Shown here: in pieces, positions 1,716-61,078 of the stretch | Layout: every line of letters starts with the position of its first letter | How positions within the stretch are numbered: the stretch's first letter is position 1 | Source: Dictyostelium discoideum | Taxonomy: Eukaryota | DNA length: 64,000 bases | Direction: 5' to 3' | NCBI GenBank assembly: GCA_000004695.1 | Contig: CM000151.3 | Span: 6,400,001-6,464,000, forward strand | Program-made: the position numbers and the translations under genes | The notes under the pieces: model-generated | What the model saw: the letters and a program-made list of their open reading frames with translations, nothing else | What the model was told of the DNA's origin: nothing | The model's database searches: none

Positions 1716-3027
1716 TTAACAAAAATTAATTAAATTTCTAATTTCTGGGGTAGTATTAACTGGTCTAATACATATTTTTTCAACCTTTACAATGAACTCA
1801 TTCCAATTTTCATTACCCAAATCGAAATCTGAATTACTATTGATTAATGGAGTTGTAATTTGTTTTTGTTGTTTTTGAGAAACAAATGACATTGAAAAAG
1901 ACATCATTTTGAATGATTGTGATATTTGTTTTTTTAATTCATTAAAATCGGCAACACTTGAAAGATCAATTGTTTTACTTTCGCCACCTTCAATTGAACA
2001 ACAAACATTGTTTACAGTTTTTTGTTTTTTTGTTGGTGATGAAACTGGTGAAATTGTAGTAGTTGTTGGTGATGGTGATGTTGATAATGATGATGAGTTG
2101 TTATTATTATTTAAATTTTCAATCTTTTTTTCAAAATCAATATCACAATCACTATCAATATTAAAACCATAACTGAAATTTGAATTTATATTGTTATTAT
2201 TATTGTTATTATTGTTATTGTTATTGTTATTATTATTATTTTGAAAAGTTGGGGTTGTTGATCTTGTTGTTGTAGTTGTTGTGGTTGTTGTTGGTGGTGG
2301 TGGAATATTATTTGGTTTGGTTTGTGATGGATGATATTGTTGTTGCATATGTTTTGATAATATACTATTATTTAAATTATTTATATTTAACATATTAATA
2401 TTTGAATTTGCATTATAAAATTGTGGCGGATAAGTAATTGATTGTTGAGATTGTTGAATATTAAAAGGTGCTTGATTATTAACAAAACCATTAACGGTTG
2501 CCGATGGCTTAAAAAATGAAAAAGGTTCAGGTTTAACAATTTGTTGTTGGTTATTTACAAAGGTATTGATTGAGGTACTGTATCTTTCGTCCAAAGGGTA
2601 TTCGGTTGCTAACCTTTTTTTATTATTATTATTTACAGATGTAGAAGTTGTAGTGGTTCTACTATTACCATAGTTGTTATTATTGTTGTTAAAACTGTTG
2701 AAACTGTAATAACTCGATGATTGGCTATTCAAGGATGCTCTACTTGCCATATTTAAATAAGTTATATAATTTAATTCTTCAAAAGTTGGTTTTTTTTGTG
2801 GACCTAAAAAATAACAAAAAATAAAAATAAAAATCAATTAATAATTTTAATTTAATAATTTAAATGATTAAAAATTTTAATACTTACTAATATTTGAATT
2901 TGAATTTGAATTATTATTATTGCTATTACTATTATTATTATTATTATTATTGTTATTATTATTGGTATTATTATTGTTGTTATTATTATTATTATTAGAA
3001 TTATTATTATTATTATTATTATTATTA

Positions 3028-3072
<45 letters not shown>

Positions 3073-4154
3073 GAGTTATTATTATTATTATTATTATTAT
3101 TATTTTCATTTATTTTAGTATCGAAATCATTTTCATCATAAATTGAACCCATTGGAGAAGAAGGAACAGTTGGACTATCATATGATGATGATTGGGACTT
3201 ATAATCAGAATCAGAACTGAAAATATCAGGAGATGTATAATCTTGTTGGGTAGAGTATGGCGATGCCTTTTTTTCATTGGATGGAGTTGGATTTGAATAA
3301 CTATTGAATGTAGGAATTGGAGTTTGTCTACTATTTTGTTGATTACCAGTGACTGGTGCAGTTGTTGTTTGATAATTAAAGTATTGATTGTATAATGGTT
3401 GATTAGTTGGTATCGATTGTCCTTGTGACAATTGGAATAAGGTTTGAGATGATGTAATATTTTGGTTACCTCTATTTTGTGAATTATTGTTATATGTTGA
3501 TGAAGATGATGATGATGATGATGACGATGTCGATGATGAAGAAGAAGAAGATGATGATGAATCATCTGATGTAAGTGTAGATGTTGGAGATGAAATGGCA
3601 GAACTATTCGTTGAAGATGATGAATTATGTAATAAGCTTGAACTATTAAAATTAAAATGAGTACCAAATGGTGATGGTTGAATACTTAAAGAAGTTGGAG
3701 TTGAAGAAGCACTTGGAATTGGAGATGATAATGATAAGGTACTAATATTCATATTTGAATTATTATTATTAATATTATTGTTATTGTTATTTACATTTGA
3801 TGAACCAGGTGAGCATAATGATGGTGTTGAACTATTTGAAGATGGTGAGAATGGTCTTGGAAAATATGGTTGAAAGAAATTATTTGAACCTGGGAAGGGT
3901 GGATTTAAATCTTCTTTTTGTGTAACTTGAATAATAATCTTATCACCTTGTCTAATGTATGGAATATCGGACTTAATAAAATTCTCTTCAATATATGAAA
4001 TATTTGTACCCAATCTTTCATGATTATTTGCAATCCATTCACCCAATGCAACATTTACCAATTTAACATGATTTAATGCGACCAATCCATGAAGTGGTGA
4101 AGAGTTACCATTTAAATTTGGTGAAGATATTGGTGATGGTGGTGATTGTTGAAA

Positions 4155-4226
<72 letters not shown>

Positions 4227-4742
4227 AATATTATTATTGTTATTATTATTATTACTCAATTTTGTATTAAAATCAGATGTAATTCCAATATTAAAATTAG
4301 AATTTTGTTGATTTGTCAAAATATTATTAATATTATTGTTATTGTTATTAATATTATTAATATTATTATTATTATTATTATTTAATTGTATTATTGATGA
4401 TTGAGAGCAATTTTTTAATTGATTATTGTTAATTAATTCGTTATTATTATTATTATTATTATTTTGAACTGATTTTGACCAATTTATAGAATGAAATGAA
4501 CTTAAACGAGTTTTTGATTTTTCGGATATTAACAAACGGAAACCTTGATATTTTTTGGTTAGACGATTAAATCTTCCACGAAGAGTTGACAAATTAACAT
4601 GAAACAAAGCGGCTAAGGTTCTATCTGGAAAATAAATTGGCTCGTTTTCGGAATTACAAAAATATTGGATTTGAGAGATTTCTCCAGTATTTGATAATTC
4701 AATGTCAAATTCTTTGACATAATATTCTCTATGTTTTTCCAT
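1716..4742 (-). CDS. Large low-complexity (poly-N/S/T/Q) protein of unknown function. 2 exons: join(complement(2888..4742), complement(1716..2803)), about 979 aa.
   Basis: ORFs 2877..4742 and 1716..2837 join via a minus-strand GTAAGT donor (plus 2882-2887) and a tttttAG acceptor (plus 2804-2805), giving an 84-nt intron with phase 1 kept (A+GT = S). ATG is at 4742. The N-terminal 90 aa (MEKHREYYVKEFDIELSNTGEISQIQYFCNSENEPIYFPDRTLAALFHVNLSTLRGRFNRL) and a mid-protein block (GLVALNHVKLVNVALGEWIANNHERLGTNISYIEENF) are non-repetitive and probably globular. Confidence 0.6.
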
Positions 4743-5872
4743 TTTTTATTTTTATTTTATTTTATTTAATTATTTTAATTTTTTTTTTTTTAGATTGAAA
4801 GGAAATTGACCAAAAATTAAGGAAATATATAACTTCGAGAAAGTTTAATAAAAATCAATAGTGATTAATGGTGGAGTCGTGGATTTAAAAAAAAAGCACG
4901 TGAGTTTTTTTGTTTGGTAAATAAAAAATAAATTTTTTTTTTTCCTTTTACTTGTAACTTTTTTTTTAAAAATAAAAATAAAAATAAAAATTAATATTTA
5001 TTTATTTTTGTATACAAATAATAAATTATTTTAAATTTTGGGGTGTATTAAAGGATAGTTAATAGTGTAGTAGGGGAGATTTGTAGGAGAAAAAAAAATA
5101 TGTGGGTGGTGGGGTAATAATGGTGTTGTTTTTTTTTAATTTTTTTGTTTTTTTTTAATGTTATGTGGAAAATACTACTACTACTACTATTGGGTACATA
5201 TTAAATTTTTAAAAAATCATATTATCAGATCAATATATTATAATATCAATATAAAAAAAAAAAAAAATAATAAAAAAAAATTTTATTTGGGGTGTGTAAT
5301 AAAAAAATAATTGCAATTATTATACAGAAATATGGATAAATTAAAAAGCCTTGCCAACCCAAATAAAATTTTGAAAAAAAAAAAAAAAAAGAATTTGATT
5401 GATTTTTAATTTGTCATATACAAACAATAACAATAATTCAACCAACATAATAAAAAGTATAACAATAACACAACAACATAAAAACGAATAAATTATTATT
5501 ATAATTATTTTAAATTTTTTTTTTTTAATGACGTAAACAACAGATTTTAGTTTTTTCATTTTTTTAATGGCGTTGTTTGTGTGGTGTAGTGTGGTGTGAT
5601 GTGGGAGTGGGAAATTTTAAAAAACAGAACTTGTTTTTTTTATTTATTATTTATTTATTTATTTTAATTGATTTTTTTTTTGGCCTATTTAATAAGTACA
5701 ATCAAAAGAAATTGGATACATTTATAATATGGTAATATTGAACCACACTATTCAAATGAATAGTTTTTTTAATTAATGCAAACAACATCTAATATTTCAA
5801 AAAAAAAAAAAAATAAAAAATAAAAAATGAAAAAATAAAAATAGGAATTAGATAAAAACAAAAAACAAAAAA

Positions 5873-5916
<44 letters not shown>

Positions 5917-6008
5917 CTGTTGTATTGGAATGTGTCATGATTTTATTAAAATTTCAAAAAAAAAAGGGTTTTGTTTTTTGTAGTTATTGTTTTTGTTGTT
6001 GTTGGTAG

Positions 6009-6039
<31 letters not shown>

Positions 6040-6376
6040 GTTGTTATTTTGGTTGTTGTGGTAGTGGTGTGGTGGTGGTGTTGTTGTTTATTGTATTATG
6101 AAAATTATAGTGAATTCTATTAAAATTATATTAACCAAAATATATAATAATAGATGAATAGGTGCTACTATTAATAAAAAATCGTATTGTACGTTTATTT
6201 TAACATTTTGATTATCGATATCATTTTTATTTTTTTTTACATTTATTTTTTTTAATTGACATTTTGTAACCCCCACCAACCACACTTATCAAATTTAATA
6301 ATGACAAAATGTAATTTTTCAAATAAAGAAAAATAATTACCCAAAAAAAAAATGTATACATATCTATTTAACAATA

Positions 6377-6429
<53 letters not shown>

Positions 6430-8801
6430 ATTACAATTTTATAAAAAAAATATTAATTTAAATAAAAAGATAAACTATTATCTTATCTACTTAATTTTTT
6501 TTTTTAAAAAAAAAAAAAAACAAAAAATTGTATTTTAAAAAATAAACCATGAATAAACCATAACTGATTAATTATTCAAATATAATTAATTGAAATAAAG
6601 GTTTTGGAGTGAGGGCAAGTGTGTGAGTGTGGGTTTAGTGTATTATGATAACGAATATGATGTATTAAATTGTGAAGTTGTTTATGGAAAATGTATTATT
6701 ATTATTTTTTTTTAATTTTTTTTTTTATTTTTTTTTTTTGTTGTTATTTATTATTATTATTATTGTTGATGTTGTAGGTTATTGTTGTTGTTGATTTTGA
6801 TGATGTCGATGATGTTTTTGATGTTTTCCTTATTATTGATTTGTGGTTTTTTTTTTTTTTTAAATTTTATGATTTTAAAAATTATAAAATACAATATTTT
6901 TTACACATCATCACCATCCATCATCCATCATCCACCCATTAAAATAATATTATTATAATTAATTTTTTAAATTTTCAAACCATTTTCCACAATTTATTTT
7001 AAATTTATTAACATCAACAAATAAATATTTATTATACGTTTTTCAAACAGAAAAACAAAACAATTAAAATTTTAAAAATAATTTTACATTTTCATCACTT
7101 TACAAAAAAAAAAAAAAATTAAAAAATAAAAAAAAAAAAAATTAAAATTTAAATGTAAATAAATTTTAATTAAATATATACAAACATTTTTTTAATATAT
7201 ATATATTTATATATATATATATATATATATAAATATATATATATAAATATAGTTATTGTTATTATTCTCTTATTTATTTTTTTAATATTATTATTATTAT
7301 TTTTTTTTTTTTTTAATTTTTTTTAATTTTTATGTTGAATTTAGATATTAAAATAAATTAAAAACCAAATTGTTTTAGTTGTTGTTTAGTTGTGTGTAAT
7401 TGCTGTTTATTTAATTATTATATTGAAAAACAAAAAAAAAAAAAAAAAAGAAAAGTTTTTTTTTATTAATTAAGAAAAAAAAATAAAAAAAAGTAAAAAA
7501 AAAATTAAAAAATTAAAAAAAAAATAAACTTGCAACAATGATTTTTAATTGTGATAAAATAATTTCCTAAAATGATTGAATTTTCAAAAGGGTTTTTAAA
7601 TGATGTGTTTAATAACAGTTATAAAAAATTAATAAAAAAAAAAAAAAATCATTTTATTAAATAAACTTCCCTTTTTCACCCAATTCATTTTTTTTTTTTT
7701 TTTTCCTTTTTTAATTTTACAAAAATTTAATATCATTTATTTCAAGTACTATTTTTAGTCAAATAAATAAAATCTGTTGGTGAAAAAAATAAATATATAT
7801 AAAAAAATAAATAATAATGGTATGATAAGAAAAAAAATAATAAATTAAATCTACAAAAAATATAATCAATCACATATCTTTTTTTTGTGAATGTATGTAT
7901 GGTAATCGGAAATTCAATCACTTACTTTACAACATCCTTGTTGTATTAATTTTTTTAATTATTTTTTTTTTATTTTTTTTTTTTTCTTTTTATAGTGATC
8001 CTTTTTAATTTAAATTAATAAATAAAAATAAATACAAAGACTAATTAAATTTAAATACAAATTAAAAATTAATTTAGAAAGAGAAGTATATAAAATATTG
8101 TTAAAAAAAGAAATATAAAAAAAAAAAAATAATAAAAACAATAAAAAAGAATTGAAAAAAAAAAAATAAAAAAAAAAAAAAAAAATATAAACGAGTTTGA
8201 TGTTTATTTTTTTTTTACAAAAATTAGTAATTTGATCAGATTGAACGAGAATTTTTAAAAAATTGCAAATAAAATTAATTCATATGAAAATATGTCATCT
8301 ATAAATTTTATTAGAAACAAATTTTATTTGATTCAGAAAAAAAAAAAAAATAAAAAATAAAAAAAAATTAAAAAAACTTATTTTCACTCAAACCATTAAA
8401 AAAATCTGCAAATATAAAAAAATAAAATATAATAAAAAAACTAATACTTTGCTTTCAATTAATAATTATGTCTCTTTTGAATTATTTATTTTGTTTTTTT
8501 CTAATCTCTTTTTTTCTATTTTTTTTTATTTTTTTTCTTTTTCTTTTTTTATTTCCTTTTTTTTTTTTTTTTTATCTTTTACTTTTATAAAATATTTAAT
8601 TTGTTATTGTAAAAATGTCATAAATGAATCTGATATATCGATGTGTGTATTAAAATTTTCAAAATTATTTTTGATTTGAGTAACCATCTTTTTGTTTTTC
8701 TAATTTAAATAAAAAATAAATATATATTATGGTGGGAGGGGGGTTAGATATTATTACAAATTTAATAAAAATTAAAAAAATTTAAAATCAAAAAAATCAA
8801 A

Positions 8802-9503
8802 TCATAAATAAATAAAAAAATAAATTACTCTATTTGATTTTTTATTTGTAGTTTCTCTTTTTAATTTATTCCAAAACAATTGAAAATTTGTACATATTAT
8901 TTCATCTATTCTATTTTCTTTTCTTAATGAACAAAAAACAGAAAAAACTGTTCTGAGTACTATATTTACATTAATCTCCTTATTACCTTCAAACCATTCA
9001 TCAATAAACCATTGAGTTACTCTTTTCTTTCTATAATTTGTTGATTGTATAATTCCATTAATATGCCCAATTGAAATGTTTAAAAAATTCTATATTTAGA
9101 TATATATATATTAATATATTATTAATATATTATTAATATATTTTATTTATTTTTTTTTTTTTTTTTTACAAACTTTTTCACAAATCAATCTTAGTTCAAT
9201 AAGAGTTAATGTTGGTTTTGGTGGAGAGTGAACATTTTTATTTACATTTGATGAATTTGGCATTGGTAAAACATCATTTGAATCTACACCAAACATTTTT
9301 TTATTTTCTGTAACTGGTGTTAAACAATATTGAAATGGGGAATTTGGGATTGGTGTTGTAAATATATTTGTGTTATTTTTATTATTATTATTATTATTAT
9401 TTAATGGGGTTGTAAAAACATTTTTAAAATTTTTATTGGGAAATGGTGTTAAATTAACACTTGGAATATTTAAAGATGAATTATTTGATTCTTGGTTTTC
9501 CAT
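8802..9503 (-). CDS. Hypothetical protein, tentative 2-exon model: join(complement(9170..9503), complement(8802..9019)), about 183 aa. Alternative junction 9174/9026.
   Basis: ORF 9147..9503 (MENQESNNSSLNIP...LIELRLICEKV) runs into a GTAAAA donor (phase 1) or a GTTTGT donor (phase 0). Either pairs in frame with an AG acceptor (9020-9021 or 9027-9028) leading into the only open downstream frame (LTQWFIDEWFEGNKEINVNIVLRTVFSVFCSLRKENRIDEIICTNFQLFWNKLKRETTNKK...stop at 8802-8804). Two independent donor/acceptor pairs give the same downstream frame. Confidence 0.4.
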
Positions 9504-9859
9504 TTTTTATTTTTTATTTTTTATTTTTTATTTTTTATTTTTTTTTTTTATTATTTGTTGAATAGAAATTAATTGTTTAACAAATAAAATAATTATATAA
9601 AAATAAATGAATAACAAAAAAAAACAAAAAACTTAAATAAAGAATTTGTTTTAAAATTTAAATAAAAAATAAAAAATAAAAAATAAAAATAAAAAAAAAG
9701 ATTTACAATTTATATCTTAATTTTACTAAATAAAATGATTTATTTAAAAAAAGTTAGATATCATTAATTTTAAATGAAAAACCAATTAAAATAATAATTC
9801 ATTGAAGTATGATTAAGGAAATCAATGAATTTATTTATTTATTTATTTCCATTTTCTTC

Positions 9860-9894
<35 letters not shown>

Positions 9895-10070
9895 GTGTTA
9901 TACATAAATTGTTTTTTATTATTATTATTATTATTATTTTTCGTTTTGATTTTACTTTATAGGAAATTCCAAATATGGATAAGTATTATTTTAAAAAATT
10001 GATAGATAATTTACTATTAAGGATCATCCAAATTATTTTTATTATTATTAATAATTCTAATAAATTATTT

Positions 10071-14915
<4,845 letters not shown>

Positions 14916-28865: not shown

Positions 28866-28984
<119 letters not shown>

Positions 28985-29265
28985 TATTTAAAAAATTAAC
29001 AATTAATTTTATAAAAATTAATTTTCATTTCCTTGATTTATCAACTAAAAGAAATCAGAATTTCATAACCAAATTTTTTAGATGTATTAGTGGTGTTAAT
29101 CTCTGATTATTATTTAAACTTATTTTTTTTTTAAATTATAAATAAATTATTTTGAAAAATTTTATCTTTTTTCTGTTTTATTTTTTTTTTTAAATTAATT
29201 AATTTTTTTTTCCTAAACAGTTTTAAAGAAAAAAAAAAAAAATAAAATAAAAAGAATTAATCAAA

Positions 29266-50282: not shown

Positions 50283-52161
50283 TTAAAAAAGATCAGAAAT
50301 TAAATCTTTTGACGATGGTTTACAATTTTCAGGAATATCAAATGAAGCAATGATTTGTTTTGAAACTTTGGTAACTTCAAAACAAAGATCTTGAATTAAG
50401 AATGGGATTGATTGAGCAACATTTGGTGAGATTAAGTGATTTGAAACGAACCAACCTAAATCTTCTTCAATGGAGACAAGAGCGTCCAACATAATTAAAT
50501 GAGCTAATGGTTTAACGTTTTTAAGTTTTAATGTATTGATAGAGTTTTGGAAAACGATTTTAGTCATGTGAGCAAAACCTAATTTGACAGCCCATGGAAT
50601 TGCATTGTTAAAAGCGAAATAAGCAGGTTCTTTAGAGTTGCTAATGATTTGTTTTAATTCGGCCAAACGAATCTCTTCTCTAGTTTCAAATAATTGATTA
50701 ATATTTGAAAAATTGAATAATAACGATTTGGCATCTTCACCATCTAAATAGATACGATTGGTAGTGGTATTTGTTTGTTTTTGTTTTACACCTAATAAAT
50801 ACTTGGCCAATTGTTGCATGAGAACAGTATTATCACCTTCATATGTACAAACGATATCACAATCATTTTTAAATTCAGCTATACGATTTGCTGAACGGTA
50901 ACCTTGACCACCACAAGCTTCACGACAAGTTTGGAGTGCTGCAACACAGAACCAACTGTAAACTGCTTTGATACCTGAGCAATGGGCATGGATTGAAGCT
51001 GGTAATTTCTCTTGACATAATTCATTGGTTAAACGTTGAATGTAAAGATCAAACAAGATGGTTCTTGCCAATGGTGCCATAAGACGACGTTGTTGTGAAC
51101 TGAGAGTAATCAATGGAAGCTCATTATTTGCAGATGGACCAAACTGTTTTCTAATATGTGAGAATTCAATAGCAATAGAGAGGGAGGTTTTGGCAGCACC
51201 TGAACAACCTTTAGTGATTGCCATTCTACCAACAATGAATGGTGCCATTGTTGCAGCGAAATTCTTTATTGGTGTATTGAATTGACTCTTGTAAACACCG
51301 TCTTCGCTAACATCACTATATTTGTTTAAAAGGTTCTCTCTTGGGATACGAACTTGATCGAAACGAATTTGACCATTATCAATACCATTCAAACCTAACT
51401 TATGACCACAATCTTTAATGGTGATACCTTTCATGATTGCACCACTCTTTGGACAACGAAGTGGTACAACCAATGCATGAACACCATAATTTGTACCATC
51501 AATGATTAAGTTTGCGAAAACAGTAGTGTAGGTAGCATGAAGATAAGAACCACCAATCCAAAACTTTTCACTTGTTGGTGTTGGTGAATGAATGATAAAC
51601 TCTTTAGTTTGTTTATCGTAATGTGCAGTAGTTTCAATACCACGAACATTTGAACCATGACCAATCTCTGTCATTGCAAAGCAACCCATTGTCTTGAGGG
51701 TATTAGCATCTTCAATATATTTCTCATGTCTTGAGGTACCTAAAAACATGATTGTACCTCCAAATAATGTATAATGAACACCCAATTTGGTACAAACATT
51801 GTTATTATACAATGAAAACATTTCTACAACACCAGCATATCTGTGAAGGTTATTCTTAATATCAGTCAAATGAATTAATCCACTATTTGCAACAGCAACA
51901 CATTGTTCAAGTACTAATTGTCTATAGGTAGCCATATCCAATCCAATGAAATTCTCTTTGAATTTTGGATGATTTCTAATGAATTCTCTTGCTGCATCCT
52001 TATATTTACTTGCTTCAACTGAATCAATTAATAATTTTAATTCTCCAACATTTATATTTGCATCAATTGAATTAAATAATTCTTTTTCTAATACTTCATT
52101 TTTATTATTTGTTGTTTGACTATTAACATCTAAATGTTTTTTAATCTATATTATATATATG

Positions 52162-54071: not shown

Positions 54072-55950
54072 TTAAAAAAGATCAGAAATTAAATCCTTTG
54101 ATGATGGTTTACAATTTTCAGGAATATCAAATGAAGCGATAATTTGTTTTGAAACTTTAGTAACTTCAAAACAAAGATCTTGAATTAAGAATGGGATTGA
54201 TTGAGCAACATTTGGTGAGATTAAATGATTTGAAACGAACCAACCTAAATCTTCTTCAATGGAGACGAGAGCATCCAACATAATTAAATGAGTTAATGGT
54301 TTAACGTTTTTAAGTTTTAATGTATTGATAGAGTTTTGGAAAACGATTTTAGTCATGTGAGCAAAACCTAATTTGACAGCCCATGGAATTGCATTGTTAA
54401 AAGCGAAATAAGCAGATTCTTTAGAGTTGTCAATGATTTGTTTTAATTCGGCCAAACGCATCTCTTCTCTAGTTTCAAATAATTGATTTATATTCGAAAA
54501 ATTGAAAAATAACGATTTGGCATCTTCACCATCTAAATAGATACGATTGGTAGTGGTATTTGTTTGTTTTTGTTTTACACCTAATAAATACTTGGCCAAT
54601 TGTTGCATGAGAACAGTGTTATCACCTTCATATGTGCAAATGATATCACAATCATTTTTAAATTCAGCTATACGATTTGCTGAACGGTAACCCTGGCCAC
54701 CACAAGCTTCACGACAAGTTTGGAGTGCTGCAACACAGAACCAACTGTAAACTGCTTTGATACCAGAGCAGTGAGCATGGATTGAAGCTGGTAATTTCTC
54801 TTGACATAATTCATTGGTTAAACGTTGAATGTAAAGATCAAACAAGATGGTTCTTGCCAATGGTGCCATAAGACGACGTTGTTGAGAACTGAGAGTAATC
54901 AATGGAAGCTCTTTATTTGAAGATGGGCCAAATTGTTTTCTAATATGTGAGAATTCAATAGCAATAGAGAGGGAGGTTTTAGCAGCACCTGAACAACCTT
55001 TAGTGATTGCCATTCTACCAACGATGAATGGTGACATTGTTGCAGCGAAATTCTTTATTGGTGTATTGAATTGGCTCTTGTAAACACCATCTTCGCTAAC
55101 ATCACTATATTTGTTTAAAAGGTTCTCTCTTGGGATACGAACTTGATCGAAACGAATTTGACCATTATCAATACCATTCAAACCTAACTTATGACCACAA
55201 TCTTTAATGGTGATACCTTTCATGATTGCACCACTCTTTGGACAACGAAGTGGTACAATAAATGCATGAATACCATAGTTTGTACCATCAATGATTAAGT
55301 TTGCGAAAACTACAGCATAGGTAGCATGAAGATAAGCGCAACCAATCCAAAACTTTTCACTTGTTGGTGTTGGTGAATGAATGATAAACTCTTTAGTTTG
55401 TTTATCGTAATGTGCAGTAGTTTCAATACCACGAACATTTGAACCATGACCAATCTCTGTCATTGCAAAGCAACCCATTGTCTTGAGGGTATTAGCATCT
55501 TCAATATATTTCTCATGTCTTGAGGTACCTAAAAATATAATTGGACCTCCAAATAATGTATATTGAACACTCAATTTCGTTAAAATATTATTATTATACA
55601 ATGCAAACATTTCTAAAGCGCCTATATATCTGTGAAGGTTATTCTTAATATCAGTAAAATGAATTAATCCACGATTTGCAATTGCAGCACATTGCTCAAG
55701 TACTAATTGTCTATAGGTAGCCATATCCAATCCAATGAAATTCTCTTTGAATTTTGGATGATTTCTAATGAATTCTCTTGTTTCATCCTTATATTTACTT
55801 TCTTCAACTGAATCAATTAATAATTTTAATTCTCCAACATTAATATTTGTATCAATTGAATTAAATAATTCTTTTTCTAAAACTTCATCCTTATTATTTG
55901 TTGTTTGACTATTATTAACTTCTAAATGTTTTTTTATCTATATTATATAA

Positions 55951-59982: not shown

Positions 59983-60247
59983 TTTTTTTTTTTTTTTCCT
60001 AGTTTATTGGAATTATAAAAAAAAAATAAAAAAAAAAAAAAAATTTAAGAATAAAAAAAATAAAAAAAAAATTGGAACAATTAAAAGATGTAAAAAAAAA
60101 AATTAATAATTAATTAAATAGTTTTTTAAAATAAAAAAATAATAAATAAGTTTATAAATTTATGAATAAACAATTTTTGAATAAACAATTTTTTGAATAA
60201 ACAATTTTTTGAATAAAAAAAATAAATGGTTTTTATAATAAATTAAT

Positions 60248-60249
<2 letters not shown>

Positions 60250-60310
<61 letters not shown>
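60250..60310. repeat. Poly(T) run of 61 nt. A second run of 54 nt sits at 60618-60671. Both are in the intergenic region upstream of the ankyrin-repeat gene.
   Basis: Uninterrupted T runs. Confidence 0.95.
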
Positions 60311-60312
<2 letters not shown>

Positions 60313-60616
60313 TTTTTTTGGGAGTTAGGTTTGAAATGGGTTAAAATAAAATCTTAAAAATTAAACAATTGTTTTTTACAAATGATTAATTGTTTTTTTT
60401 TTTAAAAAACAATCAATTAATGGTATTTGATTTTGATATTGATTTTAGTCTTAGACTTGAATTATTTTTTTTTTTTTTTTTTTGATTAGTTTTATAAAAA
60501 AAAAAAAACAATTAAATTTTTATTTTATATATTATTAATATGATGTAATGTTGGATGATGTTGTTTTGTAGTAAGTGTGATTAATCAATTTATAAATATT
60601 GTTATTTGTTATATGT

Positions 60617-60671
<55 letters not shown>

Positions 60672-61078
60672 CAAGGATTTAAAATAAAAATCAAATATGA
60701 GAAAAAAAAATAAAAAAAAAAAATAATAAATTTGAGGGGGGTGATTTTACCGTTATTTGAATCGTTGTTGCTATTTTTAATTCGATTGATGATGTTTGAT
60801 TATATATATGTATTGTACACAAGAAAATAAAATAAAAAAAATAATAAAAATAAATTACATTAAAATAATATTGTTTTAAAAAAAAAAAAAAAAAAATTGT
60901 TATTTTTAGTTTTTGATATTATGATTGAGTACACAAAATATTTTTTTTTTTTTTTTTTTTTTTGAAAAACAGATTTAAAACACAAATAATTGATCAATCA
61001 ATCAATAAAATAAATAAAAAAAAAAAAAAAAAAAAATTTTGATATTATAATATTTTTTTTTTTTGTAGACAGAAATAT

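Follow-up and report, generated by a model that had tools for sequence, protein, structure and literature searches.

The closest described systems are the GBF G-box/CAE promoters of the sigN genes, cprB, dscA and abpD, in which short GT/CA-rich islands, often closely paired, lie within AT-rich flanks; cotC and ecmA are further post-aggregative/cAMP-regulated promoters with such elements. Microsatellites of the (CAA)n and (AAT)n types are abundant in both coding and non-coding DNA of Dictyostelium discoideum. The G-rich elements of cAMP-regulated promoters have been described (PMC2148174), as has the heptamer consensus of GBF, (T/G)G(T/G)G(T/G)G(T/G) (PMC2257962). Two further classes invite comparison, namely the direct targets of GtaC, among them carA, cnrN and cad2 (Santhanam et al., 2015), and the intergenic lncRNAs, which are short, single-exon, non-coding and richer in GC than random intergenic DNA (Rosengarten et al., 2016).

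The window, that is, the whole stretch of 64,000 nucleotides analysed, corresponds to D. discoideum chr2:6,400,001-6,464,000, and a gap in coding sequence lies within it at chr2:6,404,743-6,408,603 (chromosome coordinates from PMC5295588, File S6). In window positions, the gap and the adjoining parts of the gene at its right edge are:

4743-8603, minus strand: CDS-free intergenic interval of 3861 nt, bounded by the DDB_G0276183 stop codon and the DDB_G0276147 ATG
8604-8699, minus strand: last (third) coding exon of DDB_G0276183, ending ...KNKKMVTQIKNNFENFNTHIDISDSFMTFLQ and stop, in a model identical to XP_643306.1
8700-8828, minus strand: intron 2 of DDB_G0276183, holding the G-rich island GGTGGGAGGGGGG (8731-8743), which is C-rich on the sense strand

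The initial annotation had described an ORF-poor interval of about 4 kb at 4743-8800. The interval does exist, and no CDS-free stretch of the window is longer (the next longest being 1.9, 1.8, 1.75 and 1.5 kb by a crude open-frame criterion), in a genome with a mean intergenic length of ~700 bp (PMC5295588). However, its right edge had been misplaced, as 8604-8699 is an exon and 8700-8828 an intron, and the CDS-free interval is therefore 4743-8603. Exact protein look-up matched the three-exon, 228-aa model of DDB_G0276183 to XP_643306.1, both gene models were also confirmed in a second D. discoideum assembly, and the annotated CDS ends in D. citrinum and D. dimigraforme map to 8601-8604. The island at 8713-8763 thus sits inside intron 2, outside the gap, and the equivalent place of the D. 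citrinum intron 2 carries AACCCCACCACCAC. At the other edge, DDB_G0276147 starts on the minus strand with an ATG at 4742 and encodes an uncharacterised 980-aa protein that is restricted to dictyostelids, conserved across Dictyostelia and very conserved in its N-terminal domain. We read 4743-8603 as the 3' flank of DDB_G0276183 together with the promoter/regulatory region and 5' UTR of DDB_G0276147; the part at 7001-8603 is plain AT sequence with a GC content of 11.9%.

It is likely that 4743-8603 is a long composite developmental promoter/control region of DDB_G0276147, ordinary in kind. That the gene with its start at 4742 has a large developmental promoter was among the possibilities raised initially, and it is the best supported of them, by conserved blocks, by GtaC binding in ChIP-seq and by GtaC-dependent expression. 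In late aggregation the GtaC ChIP-seq score is 11.9, assigned to exactly the DDB_G0276147 promoter region (PMC4506546, Supplementary Data 2), which is close to the scores of the direct targets carA-1 (12.1, early) and cnrN (11.9, late). The GtaC rank product for DDB_G0276147 is 0.00037, the gene is a putative direct GtaC target bound in late aggregation only, and its expression depends on GtaC, the complemented strain exceeding the knockout (PMC4506546). The interval differs from the promoters of GtaC direct targets in this restriction to late aggregation and in showing no enrichment of GATA motifs (10 WGATAR sites vs. 8.0 +/- 2.7 expected). One listing has DDB_G0276147 up-regulated, in suspension development with cAMP pulses (PMC4403905; the column, UP_Hr06_rapid, was assigned by tab position), and the differentially expressed genes listed for development on filters do not include it (PMC4403905); its developmental regulation may therefore be modest.

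To reach the related loci, the spliced products of the small gene next door were modelled for D. discoideum, D. citrinum and D. dimigraforme and matched by exact look-up, which led to the contigs; protein homology searches with the DDB_G0276147-region gene, its conserved domains and the non-kinase part of the neighbouring kinase returned no orthologue from the D. discoideum group. The gap is collinear, measuring 3573 nt in D. citrinum, 3905 nt in D. dimigraforme, 3823 nt in D. cf. discoideum and 3917 nt in a second D. discoideum strain. The lipase-gene anchor missed the interval in D. firmibasis because an extra ORF of 1613 aa separates the lipase gene from the kinase gene in that species. The P. 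violaceum orthologue has 5.3 kb of gene-free sequence upstream, and that of T. lacteum only 1.7 kb. Three-way identity is 0.55 in the interval, vs. 0.44-0.60 in other spacers and 0.68-0.85 in genes; 16 blocks of at least 30 nt and at least 90% three-way identity make up 19% of the interval (5-10% in three short spacers), and six runs of 20-29 nt are invariant across five genomes, among which homopolymer and AT tracts differ two- to three-fold in length. Conservation in other dictyostelids, which had been proposed as a check, thus extends to the 16 blocks in close relatives, but the complex blocks are not recognisable in P. violaceum or T. lacteum, where only low-complexity blocks beat shuffles. 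The blocks of most interest are:

4855-4932, minus strand: proximal conserved block (at least 90% three-way identity), 113-190 nt upstream of the ATG
5197-5232, minus strand: conserved block in which GATC and TGATAA lie side by side (5222-5231), possibly a site for a GATA factor
5521-5558, minus strand: conserved block with the CRE-like octamer TGACGTAA (5529-5536)
6148-6252, minus strand: two AT-rich blocks conserved in the alignment, including TGATATCGATAATC, 1406-1510 nt upstream of the ATG
7328-7616, minus strand: distal conserved module, 2.6-2.9 kb upstream of the ATG, made up of three blocks (84, 54 and 30 nt) with a three-way identity of 90% or more
7915-7953, 8214-8249, 8302-8333 and 8398-8440, minus strand: four conserved blocks, 160-690 nt downstream of the DDB_G0276183 stop

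The proximal block carries CACGTG at 4897-4902 and, after a T-run, CCACGACTCCACC at 4870-4882; its motifs are conserved in position at -160 and -140, and 29 nt (4861-4889) are invariant in five genomes. We infer that 4855-4932 may be the core promoter or transcription start region. The CRE-like octamer lies at -794, -770 and -789 in three species, and conserved GATA-like sites occur at 5222-5231 (GATC with TGATAA), 7552-7557 and 8234-8237. Within the distal module, 24 nt (7366-7389) do not vary among five genomes and the TGATAA at 7552-7557 is conserved; the module carries neither an RNA-structure signal nor a conserved ORF, and could act as a distal enhancer or an alternative start region. 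The blocks at 7915-8440 may represent 3' UTR or termination signals, or possibly further distal elements. Constraint is strongest in blocks of AT-rich complex sequence and not in the G-boxes, and in this the interval departs from the G-box/CAE promoters.

The GT-rich islands are present at the coordinates that the initial annotation had given, and all except 8713-8763 are no more than 2.2 kb away from the ATG at 4742. In the interval they take the following forms:

5041-5128, minus strand: two CA-rich (G-box/CAE-like) elements, CCCCTACTACAC...ATACACCC and CCCCACCACCCACAT (islands 1 and 2)
5581-5633, minus strand: CA-rich element TTTCCCAC(A/T)CCCAC (island 3)
5978-6101, unstranded: (TTG)n/(GGT)n trinucleotide microsatellite, (CAA)n/(ACC)n on the minus strand (island 4)
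6601-6642, unstranded: conserved flanks around a CA/CT dinucleotide-repeat core (island 5)
6763-6948, unstranded: (TTGTTGATG)n and (CATCATC)n simple repeats with poly-T (island 6 and the C-rich island 6896-6948)

Islands are enriched in the interval (3.5 per kb vs. 0.6-2.1 per kb in the other spacers of the window) and are not unique to it; comparable islands are also found in P. violaceum spacers. The islands fall into two kinds, CA-rich G-box-like elements and microsatellites. Heptamers of the GBF type number 12 in 4743-7000, vs. 2.9 +/- 2.0 in first-order Markov simulations, and cluster at 5040-5114 (the KGKGKGK heptamers of the island 1/2 region), 5289-5297, 5578 and 6269-6277. The interval thereby resembles the G-box/CAE promoters in its islands set within AT-rich flanks and in the close pairing of elements at 5040-5114, and their genes, like DDB_G0276147, are up-regulated in development. 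It differs from them in length, since 3.9 kb is several times the size usual for a promoter, and GBF is here a putative regulator. Five genomes retain the G-box cores at 5041-5128 and 5599-5612. The 40 nt of 5041-5080 are found in 5/5 genomes with only substitutions and keep the core CCCCAC(C/T)A(C/T)CCA(C/T)AT, and the CA-rich element of island 3 is joined to a 27-nt run, 5607-5633, invariant in the five genomes, the distal half (5581-5598) being variable. As a class, the GT/CA-rich islands show identities of 0.28-0.62 against the interval mean of 0.55 and are thus no better conserved, with the exception of 4857-4890.

Microsatellites of tri- or dinucleotide repeats (5990-6100, 6770-6840, 6896-6948 and the core of 6601-6642) account for about half of the GT-rich islands, and these are not regulatory elements. 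Tandem Repeats Finder reports 36.7 copies of period 3 at 5978-6101, and further arrays have periods of 9 (6763-6825) and 7 (6906-6934); all vary in length among strains and species. Across the five genomes, island 4 measures 111/128/110/71/143 nt, island 5, whose core expands in the second D. discoideum strain, 42/58/48/34/32, island 6 71/62/78/57/85 and the C-rich island 6896-6948 53/36/41/64/64. Such islands presumably evolve by replication slippage. In contrast to D. discoideum trinucleotide microsatellites at large, the tracts of the interval are non-coding yet mislead gene predictors. A G-quadruplex was considered and rejected, as no four runs of at least 3 G with loops of up to 12 nt occur in the interval; two-tetrad candidates only are present, at 5104, 6051-6078 and 8731 and, on the minus strand, at 6270 and 6918.

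The mechanism that may be proposed is that of a long composite RNA polymerase II promoter/enhancer in which short sequence-specific elements are scattered within AT-rich filler. These elements would comprise the CA-rich G-box-like elements, an E-box-like CACGTG by the probable start, the CRE-like TGACGTAA, GATA/GATC sites and a distal module ~2.7 kb upstream. Developmental transcription factors could bind them and so raise DDB_G0276147 transcription in aggregation and later development, although the factor suggested for each block, the position of the start and the enhancer role of the distal module are proposals. Weak plus-strand transcription over the proximal 1.1 kb would, in the simplest view, be a by-product of promoter activity.

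A somewhat bolder alternative, and an unlikely one, is that the module at 7328-7616 could be a long-range enhancer or second promoter, and/or that a G-rich plus-strand RNA at 4611-5812 could be a cis-acting lncRNA. Published transcript models over the proximal 1.1 kb bear on the latter:

5478-5812 (chr2:6405478-6405812), plus strand: single-exon lncRNA model of 334 nt, divergent from DDB_G0276147 (PMC5295588, Files S4 and S6)
4611-5419, plus strand: antisense RNA model CUFF_1603_1, overlapping the 5' end of the DDB_G0276147 ORF and the promoter (PMC5295588, File S7)

Long non-coding transcripts had been suggested from the outset, and the lncRNA at 5478-5812, one of 621 intergenic lncRNA models (PMC5295588), lends them partial support from published strand-specific RNA-seq. 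However, the antisense model at 4611-5419 belongs to a class that may be artefactual, as the authors caution that antisense models are possibly products of strand switching (PMC5295588). An independent functional lncRNA gene, whose plus-strand RNA over 4611-5812 would regulate DDB_G0276147 in cis, possibly through transcriptional interference or chromatin opening and with the G-rich islands as part of the RNA, is considered improbable. The model at 5478-5812 passes the filters of the published study (a length of at least 200 nt, a wholly intergenic position and no tiling path to an adjacent gene), is non-coding by codon scan and ORF retention, has a GC content of 19.7% against 13% in random intergenic DNA, and shows a Spearman correlation of 0.515 with DDB_G0276147 expression against a genome-wide median of 0.03 for divergent pairs (PMC5295588). 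It is thus like other intergenic lncRNAs in being short, single-exon, GC-richer and non-coding. Unlike them, it follows the expression of its divergent neighbour unusually closely and lies atop conserved promoter motifs, and promoter-associated transcription is therefore the simpler reading. Abundance is moreover very low, with 100 antisense vs. 7012 sense reads over the composite region, on which CUFF_1603_1 is weakly supported (correlation with DDB_G0276147 0.594; PMC5295588), and conservation here is limited to short DNA-motif-like blocks. A structured RNA was likewise rejected, since there is no tRNA and no Rfam match (in the window at the gathering score, in 4500-9000 at E<=1), and the conserved blocks, with folding z-scores of -0.8 to +1.3, give no structure signal.

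It is equally improbable that the interval is a plain spacer, in which AT-rich filler has grown by microsatellite and homopolymer slippage, promoter activity is confined to a few hundred bases next to the gene and the islands reflect noise in composition. Conservation over the whole interval is indeed that of other spacers, half of the islands are length-polymorphic microsatellites, the homopolymer and AT tracts vary as much as two- to three-fold in length, island density exceeds that of other spacers only moderately, and 1.7 kb upstream suffices for the T. lacteum orthologue. However, such a spacer would hardly carry 84- and 54-nt blocks at 90% identity or more 2.6-2.9 kb upstream, nor a high GtaC binding score, and for all the turnover of indels the interval still measures 3.6-3.9 kb in each of the five genomes.

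An mRNA start near ~7400 or 5800, from a distal alternative promoter or with part of the interval serving as leader exon and intron of a long 5' UTR, is a distinctly weak candidate. The sequence at 7362-7415, an 18-nt T-run followed by A/C-rich sequence, resembles a Dictyostelium start region, and strand switching on a long sense leader could account for the antisense and lncRNA reads at 4611-5812. However, the distal block is not followed by a GT-donor consensus, that at -113 to -190 is the best conserved of the start-like blocks, and short introns and leaders are typical of Dictyostelium.

A hidden low-complexity protein-coding gene, or exons of one, on the minus strand over the CAA/AAT tracts is very improbable. 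As first stated, the interval has no ORF of at least 60 aa with coding character; three of that length are present (5341-5559 and 6088-6285, minus strand; 8449-8679, plus strand), and all are AT-rich junk. The (CAA)n tract at 5949-6095 (minus strand) does form an open segment of 49 codons, upon which the automated annotation of D. dimigraforme places a 183-aa gene and that of the second D. discoideum strain a poly-Q/T exon, to which it splices DDB_G0276183 over ~2.7 kb. However, these two predictions contradict each other as well as AX4, D. citrinum and D. cf. discoideum, and the second D. discoideum strain retains the true last exon of DDB_G0276183. The tract varies from 71 to 143 nt without keeping frame, and no minus-strand transcript model over it is reported in the published RNA-seq supplements. 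In a codon log-likelihood scan it is the top stop-free segment of the interval at 12.7, vs. up to 13.0 in other spacers and 22 and 63 for the two real small exons of the gene neighbouring DDB_G0276147, so that no segment of the interval rises above the coding level of other spacers. The multi-exon low-complexity gene suspected at first finds no support in these spacer-level scores, nor in the ATG-ORFs of at least 20 aa, 0/18 of which are intact in both D. citrinum and D. dimigraforme; the minus-strand peptide then quoted, ending ...NNNNNLQHQQ, falls in a microsatellite of strain-variable length. The degenerate mobile-element relic also raised there is very improbable, an ancient one perhaps less so: the interval is unusually long for the D. 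discoideum genome, but its repeats, terminal direct and inverted ones included, are only of low complexity (Tandem Repeats Finder and a search for terminal repeats), no element-like ORF or nearby tRNA gene is present, and five genomes can be aligned collinearly over the whole of the interval, which is thus not a lineage-specific insertion.

The proposed composite promoter of DDB_G0276147 has little significance beyond its locus. CAA/AAT microsatellites in such regions give rise to false gene and exon calls in the automated annotations of relatives. Should either the distal module or the plus-strand RNA act as in the bolder alternative, the locus would offer a compact model in Dictyostelium of gene control at a distance or through RNA. 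The available data thus mark DDB_G0276147 as a gene under unusually elaborate control, and provide a candidate cis-element map ready for reporter dissection.

The simplest account of the data is that the long CDS-free interval upstream of DDB_G0276147 is a composite promoter/enhancer of that gene, a reading that we consider probable and that the initial annotation had offered, as one of several possibilities, in the form of a large developmental promoter. In this model the conserved blocks that punctuate fast-evolving AT-rich and microsatellite filler are short sites for binding factors, with G-box-like CA-rich elements among them; published ChIP-seq has the GATA factor GtaC bound to the upstream region late in aggregation, and the proximal 1.1 kb would give weak promoter-associated plus-strand transcription. 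The anatomy, the conservation and the published scores are observed; the start site, the pairing of factors with blocks and any role of the distal group of blocks are inferred.

Exact protein matches put the window on chromosome 2 of D. discoideum AX4, and window coordinates correspond to chr2 coordinates minus 6,400,000 (offset from File S6 of PMC5295588). DDB_G0276147 occupies 1716-4742 on the minus strand (chr2:6401716-6404742), with its ATG at 4742; it is interrupted by a single intron (2887-2804) and its product is 980 aa long. The gene called there in a second D. discoideum assembly has an identical length. Rightwards of the interval follow DDB_G0276183 and then the kinase gene DDB_G0276181. 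A three-exon model of DDB_G0276183 (9503-9174, 9089-8829, 8699-8604) gives a 228-aa protein identical to XP_643306.1; 8604-8699 is therefore coding and 8700-8828 intronic, and the CDS-free interval is thus 4743-8603 (3861 nt), rather than extending to 8800 as first drawn. The annotated CDS ends of D. citrinum and D. dimigraforme fall on window positions 8601-8604. By a crude criterion the next CDS-free stretches measure 1.5-1.9 kb, so that even after correction the interval far exceeds every other in the window, and it is ~5x the published D. discoideum intergenic average of ~700 bp (PMC5295588).

The flanking genes have features of their own. The DDB_G0276147 protein is present across Dictyostelia (orthologues elsewhere are labelled "putative nuclease") and has an extremely conserved N-terminal domain (31/93 positions invariant, core YFPDRTLA.LF.VNLSTLRGRFNRLTKK...LISEKSK), followed by a middle domain, likewise conserved, and by a C-terminal domain with TPEIRNLIN at its end; it gave neither a Pfam nor a PDB sequence match, and its AlphaFold model (pLDDT 64) has three strands followed by two helices. 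Exon 2 of DDB_G0276183 (8829-9089, minus strand) encodes a conserved stretch, STNYRKKRVTQWFIDEWF, with a loose resemblance to the recognition helix of homeodomains, and a scan of exon 1 returned no Pfam match. The intron 8700-8828 holds an island at 8713-8763, within which a G-run, GGTGGGAGGGGGG (8731-8743), is C-rich when read along the gene's sense strand; the corresponding intron of D. citrinum contains a CA-rich counterpart, AACCCCACCACCAC. In D. firmibasis an uninterrupted 1613-aa ORF lies between the kinase and lipase genes (locus L003, 4710-9551); it is not among the called genes of that locus and is absent there in D. discoideum, D. citrinum and D. dimigraforme. Elsewhere in the window, 50286-52145 and 54075-55937 (both minus strand) are tandem paralogous ORFs of ~620 aa with nearly identical N-termini.

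Orthologous loci were retrieved with the small neighbour DDB_G0276183 as anchor. The gap between the two genes is similar in size throughout (D. citrinum, 3573 nt; D. dimigraforme, 3905 nt; D. cf. discoideum, 3823 nt; a second D. discoideum strain, 3917 nt) and aligns collinearly over its whole length, which excludes a lineage-specific insertion. As a whole it evolves like ordinary spacer: identity across D. discoideum, D. citrinum and D. dimigraforme is 0.55, compared with 0.44-0.60 for other spacers and 0.68-0.85 for genes of the same loci. Within it, however, 16 blocks, each 30-84 nt long, reach 90% identity or more between the three species; together they make up 19% of its length. The corresponding figure is 5-10% for three short spacers and 27% for one other. 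All five genomes share six unchanged runs of 20-29 nt. The conserved features include the following.

4855-4932, conserved block with CACGTG and CCACGACTCCACC behind a T-run, the probable start region
5197-5232, conserved block with GATC and TGATAA
5521-5558, conserved block with TGACGTAA
5607-5633, run of 27 nt without a difference between the five genomes
6148-6252, two AT-rich blocks
7328-7616, distal group of blocks, 2.6-2.9 kb upstream
7915-8440, four blocks beyond the stop codon of DDB_G0276183

Across the three species, the spacing of the named motifs from the ATG is maintained. Comparison with other dictyostelids, as first suggested, recovered conserved blocks among these close relatives; none of the complex blocks and none of the named motifs was found upstream of the orthologues in P. 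violaceum (gene-free for 5.3 kb) or T. lacteum (only 1.7 kb). It is unlikely that the interval is essentially non-functional spacer beyond its first few hundred bases: its overall rate would fit such a view, but the blocks are scattered along its full length.

The GT-rich islands were confirmed where initially described, and are two different things. CA-rich elements on the gene sense strand (5041-5080, 5100-5128, the proximal half of 5581-5612, and 6266-6290) have cores kept in all five genomes, 5041-5080 being exactly 40 nt in each, and G-box-like, GBF-type heptamers, (T/G)G(T/G)G(T/G)G(T/G), number 12 in 4743-7000 against 2.9 +/- 2.0 expected. Microsatellites account for the others (5990-6100, 6770-6840, 6896-6948 and the core of 6601-6642); their lengths vary among species and also within D. 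discoideum, between two strains (e.g., 111 vs 128, 53 vs 36 and 42 vs 58 nt). All islands left after the boundary correction lie within 2.2 kb of the ATG; 7001-8603 is plain AT (GC 11.9%). Comparable islands occur at 0.6-2.1 per kb in other window spacers vs 3.5 in the interval, and at 3-8 per kb in P. violaceum spacers generally; they are a common dictyostelid intergenic feature, not peculiar to this locus. A spacer at 28870-28985 carries a long (GT)n microsatellite of ~115 nt.

The promoter definition of Santhanam et al., applied to DDB_G0276147, is exactly 4743-8603, and the gene is listed among putative direct GtaC targets, with differential-expression scores of 1.54 and 1.30 (complemented strain vs knockout), a late rank product of 0.00037 and a late-aggregation GtaC binding score of 11.9, similar to the values tabulated there for carA-1 and cnrN (PMC4506546). 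Rosengarten et al. (2015) list it once, as up-regulated in cAMP-treated suspension development (column Hr06_rapid, as inferred from tab positions), and it is absent from their filter-development lists (PMC4403905). 

Long non-coding transcripts, also envisaged initially, are partly borne out by published models: a single-exon 334-nt lncRNA at 5478-5812 (plus strand), with a Spearman correlation to DDB_G0276147 of 0.515 (divergent-pair median 0.03), and an antisense model at 4611-5419 (plus strand; correlation 0.594; 100 antisense vs 7012 sense reads), a class that, the authors caution, could reflect artefacts of strand switching (Rosengarten et al., 2016; PMC5295588). The two lie only 58 nt apart and may be one transcript. 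That this RNA is an independent cis-acting lncRNA seems improbable, and a distal promoter or long leader of DDB_G0276147, with initiation away from the probable start region, is doubtful. The same supplements contain a second lncRNA at 59991-60938 (plus strand; chr2:6459991-6460938; 947 nt), in a 1.9-kb spacer near the window end, and an antisense model at 9729-10157 (plus strand) overlapping the kinase gene at its 3' end.

Hidden low-complexity coding sequence, raised initially as a multi-exon gene, is very unlikely. Two automated annotations of relatives call coding sequence on CAA/AAT tracts, namely a 183-aa gene in D. dimigraforme (locus L008, 13109-13868) and, in D. discoideum GCA_054859355.1 (locus L010, 6001-9653), a poly-Q/T terminal exon spliced on to DDB_G0276183 over an intron of ~2.7 kb. 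However, these calls conflict with each other and with the remaining genomes, the true last exon is still present in the latter strain, and both are probably false, caused by simple repeats. Under a codon log-likelihood model trained on the window's long genes vs its spacers, the stop-free segments of the interval all stay within the level of other spacers: the best, a (CAA)n tract at 5949-6095 (minus strand), scores 12.7, other spacers reach 13.0, and two small DDB_G0276183 exons score 22 and 63. The only three ORFs of at least 60 aa are AT-rich junk, in keeping with the initial description, no ATG-ORF of at least 20 aa has survived unbroken in both D. citrinum and D. dimigraforme, and the minus-strand peptide first quoted sits in one of the length-variable microsatellites. 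Further searches returned no tRNA, no Rfam family at gathering score across the window (none at E <=1 in 4500-9000), no G3-type quadruplex motif and no excess folding energy in the conserved blocks (z-scores -0.8 to +1.3). A mobile-element relic is scarcely credible, as direct and inverted repeats are of low complexity only and collinearity with relatives is unbroken.

The interval, parts of which are already on record in published supplements, is an uncharacterised example of a well-known kind, the G-box/CA-rich Dictyostelium developmental promoter, with microsatellites added, and is not expected to surprise specialists. Mildly notable are a conserved module 2.7 kb upstream within a compact genome and a plus-strand RNA coupled to DDB_G0276147 above average.
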